64,000 bases of DNA from NCBI GenBank assembly GCA_963812015.1, contig CAWETI010000003.1, positions 224,001 to 288,000 of the forward strand. Reading direction: 5' to 3'. Below the pieces are notes generated by a model that saw only the letters and a program-made list of their open reading frames with translations, was not told the DNA's origin and searched no databases. Origin of the DNA: an uncultured delta proteobacterium (lineage in GTDB: Bacteria; Desulfobacterota; Desulfobaccia; Desulfobaccales; 0-14-0-80-60-11). A program made the position numbers and the translations under genes. Shown in pieces: positions 89 through 21,473 of this stretch; position 1 is the stretch's first letter; each line of letters begins with the position of its first letter.

Positions 89-1639
89 TTAGTACCGGTA
101 GGAGAGTTGGCCGCCGGCGATGTAGCGGTGATAACTGTACAAGGAGACGTTAGAGTTGTCTCGGATATAGTAGAAGTGGATGCCGGCTTCCAGGCCTTTG
201 ACTAACTCGTAAGTGCCCTGCATCCCGAGCGTGACGATCTGGTCAAAGCGCTTGGGTTGGGGGATCAGGGGGGCCCCGATGATGTTGCCGACGGTGGCGC
301 CGTTGTAAAAAGTATTTTCATAGGGCTGGCTGGTGAGGTCCAGGAAGATATTGTATTTAAGCTTATCGGTGATGGGCCAGAGGGCCGACAGGAGCAGATC
401 GTAGCTGTTGCTATCCCAGTTGTTGCCGGTGGTGGTATTGTTCAAATAGCTCAAGCGGGCCTGGAGGAACCCTTTTTGCTGCTTGAAAAAGTAGTACATC
501 CCGACATTGCCCCCCAAAGCCTTGCCGCTGCGATCATCCGCATTTAAGAAGACGGGGGTCCAATAATATTGGCGATTATACCTGGCGCCCAATTCCAAGC
601 CGACGTGCTCGGTGAGCAGGTGGAGATACGTAGGGGTCAGGAGAAACCCGGTGTAATACTTGTCTGATTGCAAGTCCATATAGGTATAACTGAAGGGGAG
701 CCAGAAGCGGCCATCTTTAAAGCCATAGGTGGGGGTTAGGCCCAGGAAGTGGCTCATGATGTCGTAGCCCTGCACCGCGGGATGAAAATTCTGGAAATAG
801 GAATATTGGGTCAAAACGCTGAAAGGACCGGCGGGTAAAATAGTATATTCCAGCAGGGCGCTCTGGGAGAACACGGCGCTGGCCTGTCCGGAGACCGTGG
901 ATACCGTGGCGCCGCTGCCGGGGGCGAGGGTGACGTTGGAGTCGTAATCAATGCCCGACGATACGGTGATGTGGAAGGGGCGCAATTCTTCCAGCCGCTG
1001 GGAAAGGACCCCCATGTAGCGCTTGGCGAAATCCGCGGTCTGGGTCTCGGGATTCAGGGTGATGCTGTCCTGCATGGCCTTTTTGGCTTCTTTGAGGCGG
1101 TTGAGGGCGGCCAGGGCCAGACTGGCCTGGAACTTGGCCTCCTGGGCCACTTTGGGATCAGTCTCGGCCTTGCGAAAATAATCCAGGGCTTCGCTGTACT
1201 GGCCCTCTTTGGTGGCCGCAACCCCCAGCAAAAAGGCGGTCTGACCCGGCTCGTAACCGGAGGCCTCCACACTCTGTAAAATAGGCTTGGCGTCCTTGGC
1301 CTGATCCAGGGCGATGAGGGTGTCGGCCAGCATCAATTGGGCCGCCGGAAAATTCGGCTTGAGCCGTAAGGCTTCCTGCAAATTGTCTTTGGCTTTGGCG
1401 TAGTTGAGCATGAGCCGGTAAACCTGGCCCAACAGAAAAGCCTTTTCCGGAGTATGGGTGCCTTTTTCCCAGGCCTCGGTCAATTGCGCCAAGGCCTCGT
1501 CGTAATTCTCCTGCTGCAGGTTTTGGGCGGCCTTCTGCACCAACACATCATCGTAGGGCGTAATCGCCTGGCTCGGTAACGCCCCGATCAGGAGCAGAAC
1601 GAGGAAACATCCCAGGACCGTTGCCGTCCGCTTAGCCAT
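89..1639 (-). CDS. TPR-repeat protein with C-terminal outer-membrane beta-barrel (Slam/DUF560-like)
   Basis: Signal peptide (MAKRTATVLGCFLVLLLIGALPSQA), TPR-like helices, 'DYDSNV' barrel start, aromatic-rich strands, C-terminal 'QLSYRY'. ATG at 1639 preferred over the ORF-track start at 1663. Confidence 0.75.
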   Translation of the reverse strand: MAKRTATVLGCFLVLLLIGALPSQAITPYDDVLVQKAAQNLQQENYDEALAQLTEAWEKGTHTPEKAFLLGQVYRLMLNYAKAKDNLQEALRLKPNFPAAQLMLADTLIALDQAKDAKPILQSVEASGYEPGQTAFLLGVAATKEGQYSEALDYFRKAETDPKVAQEAKFQASLALAALNRLKEAKKAMQDSITLNPETQTADFAKRYMGVLSQRLEELRPFHITVSSGIDYDSNVTLAPGSGATVSTVSGQASAVFSQSALLEYTILPAGPFSVLTQYSYFQNFHPAVQGYDIMSHFLGLTPTYGFKDGRFWLPFSYTYMDLQSDKYYTGFLLTPTYLHLLTEHVGLELGARYNRQYYWTPVFLNADDRSGKALGGNVGMYYFFKQQKGFLQARLSYLNNTTTGNNWDSNSYDLLLSALWPITDKLKYNIFLDLTSQPYENTFYNGATVGNIIGAPLIPQPKRFDQIVTLGMQGTYELVKGLEAGIHFYYIRDNSNVSLYSYHRYIAGGQLSYRY

Positions 1640-12391: not shown

Positions 12392-12667
12392 ATGAAAAAG
12401 GTGGTCATCTTGTTGGTGGTAGTAACCCTGGTTTTTGGAGGGTGCTCCAGCATGTCCACTACGCAACAACGGGTGTTGAGCGGCGGCGCCATCGGCGCCA
12501 GCAGCGGCGCCCTCATCGGCTGGGCCGTGGGTTCGCCGGCGGCCGGCGCGGCCATTGGCGGCGGCGCGGGCCTCCTGGGCGGGTTTCTCTATGACCAGTA
12601 CGAGAAATATCGCGGTCGCACTAATCCCGCAAGCTCCCCGGTCTCCCCGCCGGCCGGGGCAGACTGA
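12392..12667 (+). CDS. glycine-zipper lipoprotein, paralogue of the gene at 11961
   Basis: Lipobox 'FGGC', 'TTQQRVLSGGAIGA..GALIGW..GGFLYDQYEK'; RBS GGAGAGG. Confidence 0.85.
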   Translation: MKKVVILLVVVTLVFGGCSSMSTTQQRVLSGGAIGASSGALIGWAVGSPAAGAAIGGGAGLLGGFLYDQYEKYRGRTNPASSPVSPPAGAD

Positions 12668-12884
12668 CGCAGCTTGAGCTGACCACTCCACCCAAGGGCC
12701 CACCACCGGCCCCAGGGATTATTTACCCTTGCTCTAACGGCCGCCGGCGAGCTGGCCCCAAAGCCCAGGCCTTGTCCCGACGTGGACCCGCCACTCGCGG
12801 CTAGCGCCGGACTGACCAGAATTACCGAGGCAGTGGCACAGGGTGATAGTTAAGCCGGATAAACCTCCCAGGAAGGAAAAAACT

Positions 12885-13079
12885 ATGAAAATGGCATTGA
12901 TTCTGCTGATGCTGGCGGCCTTGATCGTGGGAGCCTGCGCTGATACGAGCAGCTCCCAGTACCGGAGCCGCAATTCGGTCATCGATCTGGCCAATACCTG
13001 CGCCACCTGCGGCGCCTCCGTCAGGGACGATTATTTTGCCGGCAGCGCCTATAGAGCCGTGGGCCCCGGCAACTATTGA
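12885..13079 (+). CDS. small hypothetical lipoprotein with CxxC
   Basis: Lipobox 'VGAC', 'CATCG'; purine-rich RBS upstream. Confidence 0.6.
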   Translation: MKMALILLMLAALIVGACADTSSSQYRSRNSVIDLANTCATCGASVRDDYFAGSAYRAVGPGNY

Positions 13080-13189
13080 TCGAGGGACCGGCCAGGGCCT
13101 CGGGGATTTTCCACCCCCGGCCGCGACGCGCCTCGTCCCCCTCTACCGCCGGGCGCCAGACCTTGCTTCCTCACCGAGTAAGACTGACT

Positions 13190-13507
13190 TTATTGGCCGA
13201 ATAGGCGCTTCCAGACCCCCCTGGTTTCCGGCTGCGGCGCGGGCAGCCCCAGGTGCTGCCGGATCACCGCCTCCAGTTTATCTTCAGCCACATCGCCGCC
13301 TTCCACCACGATCTCTTCCCCCACCATCACCGCGGGAGCCGTCGGCAGGTCCATTTCGAAATATTCGTCCGTCTGGTACTCGGCGATGGGTTTGGAAGTG
13401 GTCTCGATCTCAACCTCAAACTTTTGGCCCAACCTGGGCATCATTTTTTGAAAGTGCTTTCATGGCTTGCCGTTAGGTTCGTTCATGAAAAACCTGACTT
13501 TTAGCAA
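13190..13507 (-). CDS. thioredoxin-like selenoprotein, NEPNGKPU motif (TsoC-like), U16
   Basis: RBS AAGGAGG, then TTG at 13507 (or ATG at 13513). MLKVRFFMNEPNGKP-TGA(13460-13462)-KHFQK continues in frame into the 13190..13444 ORF. SECIS-like hairpin follows. Confidence 0.85.
13415..13459 (-). promoter_or_regulatory. SECIS-like hairpin for the UGA at 13460
   Basis: GCCCA-GGT-TGGGC (13427-13439); loop starts after 25 nt from UGA; lower stem TTTCAAA/TTTGAGG. Confidence 0.65.
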
Positions 13508-13527
13508 TGTCATCCTCCTTTGCAGAG

Positions 13528-15264
13528 TTATTTCTTCGCCACTGCGGCCATGCGGGGCAGCATCAGCGAAGGGGGCAGATAATCCACCAGCCGCAAATTC
13601 TGGCACTCGTTGCCCTGGCCGTCCAGAAAGATCACCGTGGGCACGCCTTTGATGGCGTACTGGCTGAGCAATCGCTGATGCACCGGATTGCCTTTCTGGG
13701 TGAGGTCCACTTTGAGCATGACAAAATTCTGCTCCGCCAGTTTCACCACGTCGGGATGATGAAAAGTAATCTCGTCCAGCTCTCGGCAAGGGGTGCACCA
13801 GGTGGCGTAAAAATCGATGATTACCGGCTGGTGCGCGGCTTTGGCTTGGGCCAGCACTTGATCCGAGTACGGCTGCCAGGTGACGCCAGGGCCCCGCAAG
13901 GCCCAGGAGCCCACCAGGAAGGTGGCGAAAATCACCCCCGCCAGGGCCACGGCGGTCTTGAGCCACGGGAAACTCCGGAAAGTGGCCGTGGAGCGGTCCA
14001 GCCAACCCAGGTTTATGGCCGCCGCCAGGGCCACCCCGGCCAGGAGCGCCTGGCTTGCGGTTTCGGGCAGCAGGGGCCGGACAAAATACGCGGCCATGGC
14101 CAGGAGCACCCAGCCCATGAGTTTGCGCACCCAGAGCATCCATTCTCCCGACCGGGGCAGTCTCTCCAGGCTGCCGGAAAAGAGGGCCAGGATAAAGAGG
14201 GGCAACCCCAACCCCAGGCTCAGGGTGAAGAAGACCAGAAAACCCAGCCAGGGCGATCCCATGGAAGCCACCCAGGTTAAGAGTCCCAGCACGAACGGCC
14301 CGATACAAGGCGCCGCCACTACTCCCAGAGTCAGGCCCATAAACAGGCTGCCGAAGTAGCCGGCGTAGGATTTGGACGCCGCTTGCGTCAGGCTGCCGGG
14401 CAGGCGCAGTTCCCAAAAGCCGAACAGGCTGGTGGCAAAGAAGACCAGGATGGCGGCCACCGCCACCAGCACCAGGGGATTTTGCAGCAAGGACCCCATG
14501 AGCCCGCCGGTCAAAGCCGCCACCACCCCCAGGGCGGAGTTGGTGACGGCCAGGCCCCCCAGGTACAGGAGGCCATGGACCAGCAAGCGGCCCCGCCCCT
14601 GGCCGCTTTTGCCGCCAAAGTAAGAAACGGTGATGGGGATGATGGGATAGACGCAGGGGGTCAGGTTAAGGGCCATGCCGCCCATGAAGATGCCCAGCAT
14701 GGTCCAGACCATGGCCCAACCGGAAAGCAGGCCGGGGGCATAGGCCTCCGGCGCGTAATCGCACAACCCCAGGGGATCGCTGGCCACCGGCAGCCTCCGG
14801 CTCTGCCATTCCGGAAACCCCAGGGGATCGCGGTACACGTTTTTGTAACCCAGCTTGACGGCCACCCGGGCCGCCGAGTCGCTCCGGACTCAGGCCAGGC
14901 CTGCTCAGTAAAACACCACCAGCCGGTCTTTATCCGGCCCCAATAAGGCCGCCAGGCCACCTTGAGACCGCCACCGCGACCACCAGGTGGGCTCCATGGG
15001 GAAATTGATCGCCCCCTGGATATGGCCGCTGCGATACTCCCAATCCTGGCGGGTGTCCACCAAAAACAGCTTTTGGGAGTCCTGCCGGTAACGCTCGGCC
15101 AGTTCAGCGGTGTTGATCAGGCGGTAGCCGCCGCTCCTGGCTTCGGCCAGCACGTCTTCCCCGCTGGCCTCTTGGGGGATTATCGGACGGTTGACATGCC
15201 AGAGCACCCCCAGGGTAAGGGCAATGGCCACCAGGGCCAGGAGCGTGGTCCTGCGGTTTTTCAT
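13528..15264 (-). CDS. rhodanese-DsbD(beta)-thioredoxin fusion selenoprotein (TsoB-like), U120 and U125
   Basis: ORFs 14905..15276 and 13528..14865 share a frame and are separated only by two TGAs: VVFY-U-AGLA-U-VRSDSAAR. DsbD motifs 'LTPCVYP' and 'AAPCIGP'; thioredoxin 'WCTPC'. Confidence 0.88.
14857..14891 (-). promoter_or_regulatory. two adjacent SECIS-like hairpins for the UGAs at 14905 and 14890
   Basis: GAGTC-CGGAGC-GACTC (14876-14891), loop after 18 nt from the first UGA; GGCGGCC-CGGGT-GGCCGTC (14857-14875), loop after 21 nt from the second. Confidence 0.6.
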
Positions 15265-15281
15265 AACCAACCTCATGGCGC

Positions 15282-15734
15282 TTAAGACAACTTTCCTGCC
15301 CTTTGCAACTTCGAGATGAGGAAGGTTGCGCCTCTTTGGGACAGGCCGAGCTGCGCGGCCAAGTCTTGAGGAGTGAGGGCCCCTTGCCTTTGGGCCAGAG
15401 AGATTACCTCCTCCTCCAATTCATCCAGCCAGTCCTCGAAAAGGACCAGCAAGTCCGGGTCGGCGACGGCCATCAGTTGCCGGGATTGAGCCACCCGGTC
15501 CACCAGTTTCTGACACATATGCGTTGGATCGACACCTTCGTCCATGCATTCCGCCAGTCAGAGGTGCACCATGCTGGATACCTTATCGTCGCCGGCGCCG
15601 CCGATGAGATTGACGACGAAAATCAACCGATCTTCATCGGTAACCAAGGGTAGGATGGTTTTCAGCGTTGCGGCGATTTCGGCCATAGCTTGCGCCGGGG
15701 CCATGCTCTTCAGTATTTCTTGAATTCCGGCCAT
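15282..15734 (-). CDS. LULAEC-motif selenoprotein with C-terminal HTH-like segment (TsoA-like), U59
   Basis: RBS GGAGGTGA, ATG at 15734. MAGIQEILKS...SSMVHL-TGA(15558-15560)-LAEC-MDEG continues in frame into the 15282..15545 ORF. Confidence 0.85.
15510..15557 (-). promoter_or_regulatory. SECIS-like hairpin for the UGA at 15558
   Basis: Nested pairs CTGGC/GTCAG, ATGC/GCAT, TGGA/TCCA region and GAC-GAAGGT-GTC; loop G after 18 nt from UGA. Confidence 0.6.
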
Positions 15735-15756
15735 GGTGATGAATCACCTCCCCAGG

Positions 15757-16092
15757 CTAAAAAGTTTTCCTCTCGGCCAGCAAATCCGTGGCCAGATCTT
15801 TCAACGCCGCTAAAATCTCCAAGATGCGGCCGTCGGCGATTTCGTAATATACAAAGGGGCCGCTCCGCTCCACCTTGACCAGGAGGGCCCGCCGCAATTC
15901 CTTCAGGTGGTGGGAGACCAGGGGCTGCGACAGATTCAGTGCTTCGACGATCGCCGAGACGGATTTCCTGCCATGATTGACGCACAGCAGAATCCTGAGG
16001 CGGTTTTCATCTGACAAACTCTTGGCCACAAAGGCGACCGTCTGGAGGTATTCCTCCAACGGCATCAGTGGCTCACGACCCGGTGGTGCCAA
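15757..16092 (-). CDS. ArsR/SmtB-family transcriptional regulator (TsoR-like)
   Basis: 'KSLSDENRLRIL', 'SVSAIVEALNLSQPLVSHHLKELR', 'ERSGPFVYY'. TTG at 16092 has RBS GGGAGG; alternative ATG at 16065. Confidence 0.93.
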   Translation of the reverse strand: MAPPGREPLMPLEEYLQTVAFVAKSLSDENRLRILLCVNHGRKSVSAIVEALNLSQPLVSHHLKELRRALLVKVERSGPFVYYEIADGRILEILAALKDLATDLLAERKTF

Positions 16093-16124
16093 GGTGACCT
16101 CCCCATCTCCAGGAGCTCGGCTGG

Positions 16125-16172
16125 GATAATCATATAAATAGATATTTATCTGTTTATCTACTTGGCTGTCAA
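16125..16172 (-). promoter_or_regulatory. promoter with overlapping 16-2-16 inverted repeat (putative ArsR operator)
   Basis: Minus-strand TTGACA at 16167-16172. GATAATCATATAAATA-GA-TATTTATCTGTTTATC (16125-16158, 14/16 symmetric) covers the expected -10/+1. Confidence 0.75.
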
Positions 16173-16268
16173 GGGAAAAATGCAGGAACTTTGTTTCGGG
16201 CAGGTCGTTAAGAATGGCGAAAAGCGGTTAGAGCGTTTGCTAAAATTCCTTCTGATTGCTGGTTTTTT

Positions 16269-16360
16269 AAATCCCCCTAAATCCCCCTTTTCCAAAGGGG
16301 GACTTTTAAAGGAATTTCGCTAAGTTCCCCCCTTTGGAAAAGGGAGGGTAGGGGGGATTT
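16269..16360. repeat. palindromic repeat family B (ATCCCCCTAAATCCCCCTTT..AAAGGGGGACT...GGGGGATTT)
   Basis: Double-hairpin inverted element; a close copy lies at 51938-52027. Confidence 0.8.
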
Positions 16361-16429
16361 GGGCTGTCCGCCCTCGCTTCGGGACGCACACCCAGGTGAA
16401 CCCCCTACATATCAAGGATTTTCTTACTT

Positions 16430-18337
16430 CTATGAACGCAACTTAGTATAAGCCCCCTGGCCCCCCAGGGAGCTGCGCCGTTTCAGATAAACCATCAGCA
16501 CGGCCAGGGCCGCGGGGGTGACCCCGGAGATGCGGGCCGCCTGTCCCAGGGAGCGGGGCCGCACCTGCTTCAACTTTTCCCGGATTTCCAGGGACAAACC
16601 CGGCACCCCGTCATAGTCAAAGTCCGCCGGGATGCTTTTGCCCTCCCCCTGGGCGAATTTTTTGGCCGTCTCTTCCTGGCGCTTGATGTAGCCGTCGTAC
16701 TTGTGCTGGATTTCCAGCTGCTCCACCACCTCCGGGGGCACCGGTGGTTCTTCTCCGGCCAGGCGATACAGGGTGGGAAGATCCAGCTGGGGCCGCTTCA
16801 ACAGGCTCAAGACCGGGGTGGGGACTTTGATGGGCGCGGTGCCCCGGGCTTCCAGCTCCCGGTTGACCGAAAGGGTGGGGAAGATCCGGCGGCCCGTTAG
16901 CCGCGCCTCTTCTTCCCGCATCAAGCGCTGCTTTTCCCGGAAGCGGTCCACGGCCTCCCGGTCCACCAGCCCCAAATCAAAACCCCATTCCAGGAGACGG
17001 GCGTCGGCGTTGTCTTCCCGGAGGAGGAGGCGGTATTCCGCCCGGGAGGTGAACAGGCGGTAGGGCTCCCGGGTGCCCTTAGTCACCAGGTCGTCCACCA
17101 GCACCGCCATATAGGCCTGGGAGCGGTGGGGCAGAAAGGGGGGGCGGCCCAAGATTTGGCAGGCGGCGTTGATGCCGGCCCACAGACCCTGGCTCGCGGC
17201 CTCCTCGTAGCCCGAGGTGCCGTTGATCTGCCCGGCCAGGAACAGCCCCTGGACCCGCTTGGTCTCCAGGGTGGCTTTGAGCTCCAGGGGGTCCACATAG
17301 TCATACTCGATGGCGTAGGCCGGGCGCATCACTTCGGCCTCCTCTAGCCCGGGGACGCTGCGGAACAGGGCCAACTGGACCTCGGCCGGCAGGCAATTGC
17401 CCAGGCCCTTGGCGTAGATCTCGGCAGTGTCCCGCCCCTCCGGCTCCAGGGTCACCTGGTGGCTGATCTTCTCGGGAAACCGCATCACCTTGTCTTCCAG
17501 GGAGGGGCAGTACCGGGCGCTCACCCCCTTGATCACCCCGCTGTATAACGGCGAGAGGTGGATATGGTCCCGGATGAGCTTATGGGTGGCGCCGGTGGTG
17601 TGGGTGACATAACAGGCCACCTGCTCCAGGGGCAACGCCTGCGTGCGCCAGGAGAAGGGGCGGGGCCGGGGATCGCCGGTGAGCACCTCCAGGCCGGCGA
17701 AATCAATGCTGCCGGCCGCCAGGCGCGGCGGCGTGCCGGTCTTTAAACGCCCCATCTTAAAGCCCAGGTCCTTGAGGCAGGCGGCCAGGCCGGTGGCGGC
17801 GAACTCTCCGGCCCGGCCGGCGGGGATGCGGCAGTCCCCGATGTGGATGAGGCCGTTCAAAAAGGTGCCGGTGGTGATGAGCACTGCCCGGGCCCGGTAA
17901 TTGAGGCCCAGGGTTTCCACCACCCCCACCACCCGGCCGTCCTCCACCAGGAGCCGCTCCACCATGGATTCTCTGAGATCGATGCGGCCCTCTTTTTCCA
18001 GGTGGGATTTCATGGCCAGGCGATAGGCCTGTTTGTCGCACTGGATGCGGGTGCCCCGGACCGCCGGCCCTTTGGAGAGGTTGAGGGTGCGGAACTGGAT
18101 GCCGGCCTGATCCGCCAGGTAGCCCATCATCCCCCCCAGGGCGTCGATCTCCTTCACCAAGTGGCCTTTGGCCAGGCCACCCACCGCTGGGTTGCAGGCC
18201 ATATGGGCCATGGTGTCCAGGTTGAGGTTGAAGAGCAAAACCTTCAGACCCATGCGGGCCGCAGCCAGCGCGCCTTCGCATCCGGCGTGACCGGCGCCGA
18301 CGACGATCAGATCATAATCTTTCGGATAAAAGGCCAT
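16430..18337 (-). CDS. mnmG: tRNA uridine-5-carboxymethylaminomethyl(34) synthesis enzyme MnmG (GidA)
   Basis: '[10 protein letters not shown]', '[11 protein letters not shown]', 'RLKTGTPPR', 'RYCPSLEDK', '[14 protein letters not shown]', 'TSRAEYRL'. Confidence 0.98.
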
Positions 18338-19362: not shown

Positions 19363-20643
19363 TTAGTCCCCGCCCCGGTCCCGGTCCAGGTTGAACAGCC
19401 GCCGCACCAGGTCCAGTTCCTGGTGGGGGTTCTTGGGACGGCGGTTGCGCTTCAGGAAGATGATGGGGTCGTGGAGGAGTTTCTGGGTGATGGAGCCGGT
19501 GAGCACCTCCAGGGCCTGGCGCTGCTCCGGGGTCAGGGGACCCAACTGGTTCAGGGTCTTTTTCAGCTCCGCCTGGCAGATGGCCTCGGCCTTGTCCTTG
19601 AGGGCGATGATGGTGGGGTAGACCGCCAGGGTTTCCAGCCAGTGGAGGAATTTTAGGGTCTCGGCGGCCACCAGGCGCTCGGCTTTGGTGGCTTCGTGCC
19701 GCCGACGGTCCAGGTTGAGTTCCACCACCTCTTTCAGATCGTCGATGTTGTAGAGGTAGACGTTGTCCAGGTCGTTGATGCCGGGGTCCAGGTCCCGGGG
19801 CACCGCGATGTCGATGAGAAAGAGGGGCCGCTGCTTGCGCCGCCGCATCACCCCTTTGACCTGGTCCCGGGTGATGAGGACGTTGCCGGCGCCGGTGGAG
19901 CTGATGAGGATGTCGGCGGTGAGCAACTGGTCCGGCAATTCTTCCAGGGAGACCGCCTCCCCGCCGAAGCGCCTGGCCAGGTTGACGCCCCGCTCCAGGG
20001 TGCGGTTGGCCACGGTGATCTTGCCGGCGCCCTGGCCTTTGAGGTGCTCCAGGGCCAACTCCGCCATCTCCCCGGCCCCCATGAGCAGGACGTTTTTGCC
20101 GGCGAGGTCCCCGAAGATCTTTTTGGCCATGGTGACCGCGGCATAGCTGACACTCACGGCATGGTCGCCGATGCCGGTCTCGCCCCGGACCCGTTTGGCC
20201 ACGGAAAAAGCCTTGTGAACCAGGCGGTTGAGTATGGGGCCGGTGGCGTGGTGCTCCGTGGCCTCCCGGTAGGCCTGTTTCACCTGGCCGAGGATTTGGG
20301 GCTCCCCCACCACCAGGGAATCCAGGCTGGCCGCCACCCGGAAGAAGTGCTGCACCGCCTCCTGATCCCGGTGGATATAAAAGGACTCGTCCAGGTCACC
20401 CGGGGCGATCTCCGGGTGGCGGGCAAAGAATTCCCGGCTCCGCTCCGCGACGTCGTCCGGCGCCTCGGTGACGCACATCAACTCCACCCGGTTGCAGGTG
20501 ATGTACAACAGGCTCTCGGAGATCTCGGGCCAATGCTTCAGGCGGTCGTAGGCGTCCCCCACGTCCGGGATGAGGCAGGCCAGCTTTTCCCTGAGGGCCA
20601 CTGGCGCGGTTTTGTGGTTGACGCCGCAGAGGAGGAGGTTCAT
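19363..20643 (-). CDS. hemA: glutamyl-tRNA reductase
   Basis: 'GVNHKTAPVALRE', 'TCNRVE', 'SLDSLVVGEPQILGQVK', 'GAGEMA', 'DIAVPRD'. True start is ATG 20643, overlapping the ccsA stop. Confidence 0.97.
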   Translation of the reverse strand: MNLLLCGVNHKTAPVALREKLACLIPDVGDAYDRLKHWPEISESLLYITCNRVELMCVTEAPDDVAERSREFFARHPEIAPGDLDESFYIHRDQEAVQHFFRVAASLDSLVVGEPQILGQVKQAYREATEHHATGPILNRLVHKAFSVAKRVRGETGIGDHAVSVSYAAVTMAKKIFGDLAGKNVLLMGAGEMAELALEHLKGQGAGKITVANRTLERGVNLARRFGGEAVSLEELPDQLLTADILISSTGAGNVLITRDQVKGVMRRRKQRPLFLIDIAVPRDLDPGINDLDNVYLYNIDDLKEVVELNLDRRRHEATKAERLVAAETLKFLHWLETLAVYPTIIALKDKAEAICQAELKKTLNQLGPLTPEQRQALEVLTGSITQKLLHDPIIFLKRNRRPKNPHQELDLVRRLFNLDRDRGGD

Positions 20644-21473
20644 GGCTTTTGCAGGAACTTGGCGAAACTGTGGTAGCCCGTGAGCCACAGGTTGGCGCCC
20701 ACAAAGGTGCACACCAGCACCAGGAAGCCGCCGATGGCCATCAGCGCCGCCCGCCGGCCCCGCCAGCCCACCGTCAGACGCTCGTGGAGGAGCACGGCGT
20801 AGATGAGCCAGGCGATGAGGGTCAGGACCTCCTTGGGGTCCCAACTCCAGAAGCGCCCCAGGGTGTGCTGGGCATAGAGGGACCCGGAAATGATCCCGGC
20901 GGTGAGCAAGGGGAAGCCGAAGGTCAGGCACCAGGAGTTGAGGGTGTCCAGTTGAGACAATGACGGCAGCCGCCGATAAAAAAAGCCGAACTGCTTGCCC
21001 TTGATCTGCCGCTCCTGGATCAGGTAGAGGATGCCTCCCAGGCAGGCCAGGGCCAGGGCGGCATAGCCCGCCAGGGTCAGGCAGATGTGCACGGTGAGCC
21101 AGAAACCCTGCAGCAGGGGCGAGACGGCCCCTTGGGGCTGGGGCAGGATGAGGGCGCCGGACACCATCAGGGCCGCCAGGGGCGCCACCAGGGCGCCCAG
21201 GACCTTGATGGGGTAGCGCCAGATCAGGAGCAGAAAGGCCGCCACCAGGGCCCAGGCGAACAACAGCAGGGTGGCCCCGAAGCTGGCCGCGGGAAGGGAC
21301 CCTGAGATCCAAATCCGCTGGATAAGGGCCAGGGTGTGGCACGCCAGGCCCCCGGCCATGACCCAGGCGCCGGCGCGATAGTAGCCCTCCCACTGGGCCA
21401 GGAAGTATAACAGCCAGAGGCCGGTGGCGGCGAAATAGGCGGCCAGGGCGAGATAGAGGAAAAGGTTATTCAT
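20640..21473 (-). CDS. ccsA: cytochrome c biogenesis protein CcsA/CcsB (HemX-like)
   Basis: Multi-TM; WWD motif 'WSWDPKE'; conserved His residues; upstream of hemA. Confidence 0.9.
   Translation of the reverse strand: MNNLFLYLALAAYFAATGLWLLYFLAQWEGYYRAGAWVMAGGLACHTLALIQRIWISGSLPAASFGATLLLFAWALVAAFLLLIWRYPIKVLGALVAPLAALMVSGALILPQPQGAVSPLLQGFWLTVHICLTLAGYAALALACLGGILYLIQERQIKGKQFGFFYRRLPSLSQLDTLNSWCLTFGFPLLTAGIISGSLYAQHTLGRFWSWDPKEVLTLIAWLIYAVLLHERLTVGWRGRRAALMAIGGFLVLVCTFVGANLWLTGYHSFAKFLQKP

Follow-up and report, generated by a model that had tools for sequence, protein, structure and literature searches.

A minimal tsoR-tsoA-tsoB-tsoC operon with four predicted selenocysteine codons in an uncultured bacterium of the Desulfobaccales

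The DNA analysed here, in the following called the window, is a stretch of 64,000 nucleotides (nt) from an uncultured delta proteobacterium of the Desulfobaccales (assembly GCA_963812015.1, contig CAWETI010000003.1, positions 224,001 to 288,000), and it contains four co-directional genes on the minus strand that belong to the three selenoprotein operon (Tso). The genes tsoR, tsoA, tsoB and tsoC are located between mnmG and small lipoprotein genes and are separated by gaps of only 22 nt (tsoR-tsoA), 17 nt (tsoA-tsoB) and 20 nt (tsoB-tsoC). The three genes following tsoR are interrupted by in-frame TGA codons, one each in tsoA and tsoC and two in tsoB, and they yield full-length products if TGA is translated as selenocysteine (Sec, U). 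The coordinates of all features are collected in Table 1; for tsoB an alternative ATG at 15276 would extend the product to 582 amino acids (aa). A preliminary description of this DNA, made from the letters alone, had reported four minus-strand genes with in-frame TGA codons and products of 150, 578 and 105 aa, and both the positions and the lengths were recovered in the present analysis. Apart from the Tso genes, no adjoining selenoprotein gene was found in the window.

Gene families, UGA codons and downstream hairpins

All four proteins are recognized by curated NCBIfam models with scores above the respective cut-offs: TsoA by NF045695 (224.2 bits, cut-off 170), TsoB by NF045694 (1010.3 bits, cut-off 805), TsoC by NF045708 (151.2 bits, cut-off 45) and TsoR by NF045707 (165.9 bits, cut-off 115), which shows that the names given in the preliminary description were the correct ones. 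The motifs of the three selenoprotein families, i.e., LULAxC in TsoA, UxxxxU in TsoB and NEPxGxxU in TsoC, are all present and the gene order is the same as in the known Tso operon. The three selenoprotein operon received its name from genome comparisons in 2025; a 2026 review (PMC13188914) tabulates TsoA (LULAxC), TsoB (UxxxxU), TsoC (GxxU), TsoX and TsoY, names the Tso operon and attributes it to Haft & Tolstoy 2025 (mSystems 10:e0141724). As the operon, its three selenoprotein families and the regulator are thus in print with curated models, the system is already known, and the finding reported here is a correct rediscovery with nothing new in it. Profile searches for TsoX and TsoY gave no match in the genome, a weak negative result as the same searches were also silent in every control genome.

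The preliminary description had made its reading depend on the presence of selA, selB, selC and selD, and all four were found in the genome above their cut-offs: selA with 608.5 bits, selB with 368.5 bits, selD with 372.7 bits, and the gene for tRNA-Sec (selC) with 74.7 bits at a gathering score of 47. The selD gene (G000:C2:1058596-1059513) itself carries one in-frame TGA and encodes a Sec-type SelD.

The TGA codons are conserved wherever they could be aligned. Of 41 related genomes searched for TsoB, 16 contain the protein above the cut-off, with two TGA codons in every full-length copy. In the Tso loci of relatives that were aligned for the TGA sites (L022-L039), the codon is kept in 15/15 TsoA, in 17/17 TsoB at both sites and in 15/15 TsoC. 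A scan of a collection with one genome per species returned at least 598 pattern matches, at least 554 of which encode a TsoB relative, and the best 80 of those loci, all from other species (L042-L121), were analysed in detail. These loci belong mostly to Desulfobacterota (Desulfobaccales, Syntrophobacteraceae, Desulfobulbaceae, Desulfobacterales, Desulfacinum infernum DSM 9756) and in a few cases to Nitrospirota. Here, TGA occupies both TsoB sites in 79/79 aligned sequences, the TsoA site in 47/47 aligned sequences (TsoA being present in 49 loci) and the TsoC site in all 67 loci with TsoC; TsoR is present in 53. TAA or TAG, which the preliminary description had named as evidence against its proposal, stands at a Sec site in none of these aligned homologues, and the Cys codons of the membrane and thioredoxin parts of TsoB are always TGC or TGT.

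In bacteria, the selenocysteine insertion sequence (SECIS) is a hairpin located just 3' of the UGA within a usual distance range and with a G in its apical loop. A hairpin follows each of the four UGAs: all loops contain a G and lie at +22 to +31, and the stems start 17-24 nt downstream, close to the 18-25 nt given in the preliminary description. In the tsoA hairpin, 87.9% of the cells are paired across 11 distinct sequences and the pair 20-33 is compensatory (AU in five, GC in five, GU in one). For the tandem hairpins of tsoB, 95.1% of the cells are paired across 17 sequences; most pairs are invariant, the closing pair 33-51 is mixed (CG in four, GC in four, GU in four, other in five) and the pair 18-31 is broken in 5/17. 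In the tsoC hairpin, the bases vary little or not at all across 15 sequences. Moreover, the 17 codons that follow the UGA(s) were compared with the rest of the gene for synonymous-codon identity by a Mann-Whitney test. The identity is raised in tsoA (0.854 vs 0.667 elsewhere, p 0.001) and in tsoB (0.847 vs 0.707, p 0.0003; 6/326 windows of the gene are as high), these p-values overstating the significance because the sequences are kin, while in tsoC (0.813 vs 0.756) the difference is not significant. The four apparent stops almost certainly encode selenocysteine, and it is very likely that the locus as a whole represents a canonical tsoR-tsoA-tsoB-tsoC operon, the four UGAs of which are decoded as Sec via SelA, SelB, SelD and tRNA-Sec with a hairpin downstream of each.

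Table 1. Genes, UGA codons, hairpins and the candidate promoter of the Tso operon (positions in the window; + numbers are nt downstream of the UGA).
Feature	Position	Strand	Remarks
tsoR	15757-16092	-	111 aa, TTG start, stop TAG
tsoA	15282-15734	-	150 aa with TGA=U, stop TAA
tsoB	13528-15264	-	578 aa with TGA=U, ATG start with GAGG upstream, stop TAA
tsoC	13190-13507	-	105 aa with TGA=U, TTG start, stop TAA
TsoA U59	15558-15560	-	in-frame TGA
TsoB U120	14905-14907	-	in-frame TGA
TsoB U125	14890-14892	-	in-frame TGA
TsoC U16	13460-13462	-	in-frame TGA
SECIS-like hairpin of tsoA	15510-15557	-	upper stem from +17, loop AGGUG +24 to +28
tsoB hairpin, first UGA	14876-14891	-	stem +17 to +32, loop CGGAGC
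tsoB hairpin, second UGA	14857-14875	-	stem from +18, loop CGGGU
tsoC hairpin	13427-13439	-	GCCCA-GGU-UGGGC, stem +24 to +36, loop GGU
Candidate promoter/operator	16125-16172	-	TTGACA 16167-16172, promoter-like site 16156..16129

Predicted architecture of TsoB, TsoC and TsoA

TsoB is composed of three Pfam domains (in the numbering of the 582-aa form), i.e., Rhodanese (58-159), DsbD_TM (191-402) and Thioredoxin_7 (466-552). According to its hydropathy profile, a positive N-terminus and a hydrophobic anchor (6-24) precede the rhodanese domain, and eight hydrophobic helices separate the latter from the thioredoxin-like domain. The positive N-terminus, the anchor and the eight helices together place both soluble domains on the same, outer side of the membrane, as in DsbD. 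The residues available for redox chemistry are U120 and U125 in U120-AGLA-U125, C204 in TPCVYP of helix 1, C320 in APCIGP of helix 4, and C490 and C493 in WC490-TP-C493, and all six are invariant in 14/14 TsoB sequences. With these domains, helices and cysteines, the view of gene B as a rhodanese fused to a DsbD-type protein, already put forward in the preliminary description, was borne out. TsoB shares with Escherichia coli DsbD (NF001419) a signal or anchor, a periplasmic N-terminal domain, an eight-helix membrane domain with Cys in helices 1 and 4, and a periplasmic C-terminal thioredoxin-like CxxC domain. However, the immunoglobulin-like alpha domain of DsbD, which holds a Cys pair, is replaced in TsoB by the two-Sec rhodanese, so that the final acceptor would differ from that of DsbD. 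The rhodanese part has the same fold as single-domain rhodaneses such as GlpE and PspE and the solved structures 6mxv, 2hhg and 3d1p. In the alignment to solved rhodaneses, U120 falls on the catalytic Cys behind the conserved (V/I)FYC, and the loop is longer by two residues and carries U125 as the second Sec; single-domain rhodaneses have Cys where TsoB has Sec, and unlike them the TsoB rhodanese is tethered to a membrane electron conduit.

The rhodanese loop of TsoB was also met outside the operon. Two identical remnants (G000:C2:293365-293547 and C2:808813-808995; L122 760-1131, minus strand), which read VVF*UAGLAUVRSDSAARVAVKLGYQNVYRDP (* for the stop), correspond to this loop with TAA in place of Tyr; they have no recognisable upstream frame and are located upstream of a secreted tandem-rhodanese gene. 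By sequence they look like a decayed stand-alone di-Sec rhodanese. An intact stand-alone di-Sec rhodanese, a 166-aa frame with two TGA codons, is present in two related genomes (G001 and G012).

TsoC carries the motif N9-E-P-N-G-K-P-U16, in which Sec takes the second and Gly (G13) the first position of a thioredoxin CxxC, so that the CxxC active site of thioredoxins is not present (G13-K-P-U16). No Pfam domain was matched. A structure model with a predicted local distance difference test score (pLDDT) of 85.8 was compared with solved structures by Foldseek, and at E <= 0.001 it matched SA0789 (1xg8), ArsD (3kgk, E 7.7e-4) and a glutaredoxin (4tr0), with many thioredoxins just below. TsoC thus models as a cytoplasmic thioredoxin-fold selenoprotein, which agrees with the Trx-like character that the preliminary description had ascribed to gene C. 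ArsD is an arsenic metallochaperone with a Cys triad near its N-terminus. ArsD and SA0789, both lacking a canonical CxxC, are the closest folds (template modelling score about 0.5, identity 17-19%); the three-Cys site of ArsD is absent from TsoC, in which this region contains one Sec and lacks a conserved Cys. The genome contains one copy of tsoC. The window genome lacks the second TsoC-like paralogue that lies directly after tsoB in some same-genus relatives (L023 1184-1468, minus strand; L027 about 1190-1480, minus strand). That second gene carries NEPCGLTU (CxxxU) instead of NEPNGKPU, the window having the NEPNGKPU form only, and in L023 an extra ArsR-like gene (500-907, plus strand) stands between the two TsoC genes.

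In TsoA the Sec is embedded in H57-L58-U59-L60-A61-E62-C63, followed by C74, and H57, C63 and C74 are invariant in 21 TsoA sequences. At residues 103-147 the protein matches Pfam HTH_24 (25.2 bits vs 21.9), a C-terminal helix-turn-helix which the preliminary description, in whose relay TsoA takes no part, had overlooked. The structure model is all-helical with a pLDDT of 71.2, below 50 around the motif. Foldseek returned nothing at E <= 0.001, and the likeness to helix-turn-helix structures is therefore weak and leans on the Pfam match: winged-helix DNA-binding domains can be superposed on the last 42-49 residues with a root-mean-square deviation of 1.1-1.7 A, but at E 0.3-1. A search of 1.84 billion representative proteins with TsoA gave 196 matches at E <= 0.001. 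Seventeen more distant relatives that were read (among P0270-P0389) have Met-rich (MMxxMM) and Cys-rich N-terminal parts and end in a helix-turn-helix, and most of them keep a Cys at the C74 position (NPMEMC-like). Twelve of them were scanned, and the one named family that they match is TsoA, with scores of 56-80 bits that do not reach the cut-off; one distant relative (P0306) retains H-(U read as W)-xxx-C. In one TsoA homologue of the best 80 loci (L042-L121) a TGA stands at the Cys74 position, which would give a Sec/Cys pair at a second site of the protein.

Regulatory region, RNA contigs and neighbouring genes

TsoR, encoded at the head of the operon, is a regulator of the ArsR/SmtB type (Pfam HTH_5). 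Upstream of its gene, an inverted repeat (16125-16140 / 16143-16158) with 16-nt arms, 88% complementary and 2 nt apart, overlaps the -10 region of the candidate promoter. In 6/10 aligned relatives, a comparable AT-rich palindrome lies upstream of tsoR behind a box resembling TTGACA (exact in three), and none was found in the upstream stretch taken from the other four (L023, L025, L028, L022). Downstream of tsoC, no terminator-like site was detected. In four wetland RNA libraries, contigs that are 90-99% alike bridge the UGA of tsoA (X16 record 15), both UGAs of tsoB (X18 record 30) or its first UGA (X15 record 5), the UGA of tsoC (X18 record 25) as well as the junction between tsoR and tsoA (X17 record 24, X18 record 32), with thin coverage of the tsoA-tsoB junction (about 15166-15279).

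Between mnmG and tsoR there is a palindromic element of about 100 nt (16262-16365) with a folding energy of -53.6 kcal/mol (z -4.52). Of its 56 matches in the genome, about 15 are near full length with >=89% identity. Its summed RNA contig depth in the four wetland libraries is ~100x that of its flanks, and many contigs end at 16264/16269 and 16305/16360. The element looks like a repeat resembling repetitive extragenic palindromes or miniature inverted-repeat transposable elements (REP/MITE-like).

With regard to gene content, the window copy shows no essential difference from the known Tso system and represents its minimal four-gene form. Among the best 80 loci, the most frequent recurring same-strand neighbour is a membrane protein of the fatty-acid-hydroxylase family encoded after tsoC (34 loci); a GcvH-related protein (NF045810) is encoded between tsoB and tsoC at 6/80 loci and a thioredoxin reductase beside the operon at 5/80, whereas none of the three is linked to the operon in the window. 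The hydroxylase-family gene (PF04116, 94.3 bits; OlsE-like below cut-off) is mostly found within about 500 nt after tsoC, e.g., at L082 3493-4347 and L055 4389-5237. The fatty acid hydroxylase family is known for di-iron enzymes that depend on oxygen, so that its occurrence in these anaerobes is odd. This neighbour may point to the real client of the Tso system. The sole hydroxylase-family gene of the genome (C3:816531), considered as a relocated Tso partner, is located about 580 kb away, after recO, and its product is 40-43% identical to the Tso-linked ones.

Elsewhere in the window, the hemA frame (19363-21393, minus strand) encodes 676 aa, of which the glutamyl-tRNA reductase model covers residues 254-670 only; either the true start lies downstream of the GTG that was called, or the protein carries a fused N-terminal domain of about 250 aa.

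Proposed electron relay and competing explanations

The architecture of the proteins suggests a path for electrons across the membrane. Reducing power would enter from the cytoplasm via the thioredoxin-fold TsoC and/or an ordinary thioredoxin, cross the membrane via C204/C320 of TsoB, pass to the periplasmic WC490-TP-C493 domain and end on the periplasmic rhodanese, where U120 would be the catalytic Sec and U125, five residues on, the second. The reduced diselenol would then act on a periplasmic chalcogen or on a soft metal(loid). TsoR probably binds the palindrome over the promoter and would in this way repress the operon, and TsoA would be a cytoplasmic protein with a His/Sec/Cys/Cys site and a helix-turn-helix at its C-terminus. 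The chances of such a DsbD-like relay, running from TsoC and/or thioredoxin to C204/C320, C490/C493 and U120/U125, and of TsoB working like DsbD without being DsbD proper, are in our view about evenly balanced. A further role, for which the prospects are rather poor, would make TsoA a Sec-bearing sensor or co-regulator, the His57/Sec59/Cys63/Cys74 site of which signals in which redox or ligand state the TsoC-TsoB relay is, while the helix-turn-helix passes the signal on at DNA or by holding TsoR; if true, TsoA would link sensing by means of selenium to transcription.

A number of observations weigh against this picture. Taken as single folds, the hairpins are no better than shuffled sequences (z -1.01, -0.35, -0.65 and -0.69), and an Rfam scan of 12500-16800 with E up to 10 gave no SECIS and 11 weak matches, all far below their gathering scores. 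Homologues with Cys at the Sec site, the classical support for selenocysteine, are nearly absent. Of the full-length database homologues read, 10/10 TsoA and 8/9 TsoC have W at this position, owing to gene calls under genetic code 4, and one TsoC (P0130) has Cys; no Cys form of TsoB occurs among 79 loci. The preliminary description had proposed looking for homologues with Cys or U at these positions, and the U half of this expectation held, TGA being kept everywhere aligned, whereas the Cys half did so in the one TsoC alone. TsoA is missing near TsoB in 31/80 loci and TsoC in 13/80, some of these being cut contigs. The RNA contigs derive from relatives, may include DNA and show no single transcript. 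With respect to the relay, TsoC would be unable to act as an ordinary dithiol thioredoxin because it has a single Sec in GxxU, and TsoB reaches 242.5 bits against the DsbD model NF001419, below the cut-off of 330, and is for this reason not DsbD proper. In TsoR, the only Cys (C37) is kept in 10/14 relatives, so that there is no conserved sensor residue or obvious metal site. Literature searches turned up no experimental work on Tso, only the review PMC13188914, which agrees with the statement in the preliminary description that no experimental function was known.

Should the TGA codons be real stops, one would be dealing with split or decaying genes in which the frames continue past the TGA by accident. 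Public gene calls indeed mostly stop or restart at the TGA, as most of the 120 TsoA matches listed have 82-91 aa and most listed TsoC 82-90 aa, and the lack of folding signal in each single hairpin fits real stops as well. However, in 80 species the frames on both sides of the TGA are conserved as protein, every aligned site carries TGA, and neither TAA nor TAG occurs there. Each protein is most strongly conserved in the motif that surrounds the TGA, and the Sec machinery is complete. In addition, the truly broken copy in this genome looks different: it has lost the upstream frame and carries TAA in place of the Tyr that precedes the first U. Real stops are hence highly improbable. Even more remote is an alternative genetic code that would assign TGA to Trp or Gly everywhere in the organism. 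It would account for the full-length TsoA and TsoC that some metagenome pipelines called with W at the sites, but TGA terminates 4/10 housekeeping genes elsewhere in the window and is internal in none of the 10, which marks it as an ordinary stop in this organism; some relatives' Tso genes themselves end in a genuine TGA, and tRNA-Sec and selB are present.

More serious, yet still unlikely, is the explanation that the operon mainly handles soft metals or metalloids rather than relaying electrons, with Sec and Cys side chains of the rhodanese loop, the membrane domain, TsoC and TsoA binding and passing Hg, As, Sb, Cu or the like in the manner of MerP/MerT or ArsD and TsoR serving as the metal switch. 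The membership of TsoR in the ArsR/SmtB family is consistent with this explanation, as are the match to ArsD among the three best folds of TsoC, the retention of His57, Sec59, Cys63 and Cys74 in TsoA, and the Met- and Cys-rich character of distant non-Sec TsoA relatives. On the other hand, TsoR contains neither a conserved Cys nor a His-rich site, TsoC does not possess the three-Cys site of ArsD and is matched equally well by thioredoxins and a glutaredoxin, TsoB retains the full set of DsbD redox cysteines, thioredoxin reductase is encoded nearby at 5/80 loci, and no gene for a metal transporter or reductase adjoins the operon in the window.

In the reading as an electron relay, the Tso operon would provide relatives of the anaerobic sulfate reducers with an unusual chemical tool, a DsbD-type conduit ending in a diselenol rhodanese. 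TsoB relatives are widespread, with at least 554 stretches in the one-genome-per-species collection, and standard gene calling still splits the Tso genes, most public TsoA and TsoC entries among the matches listed being fragments of 82-91 aa that start after the TGA. The copy described here, bare in its four genes and equipped with a clear candidate operator, would offer a clean template for functional tests.

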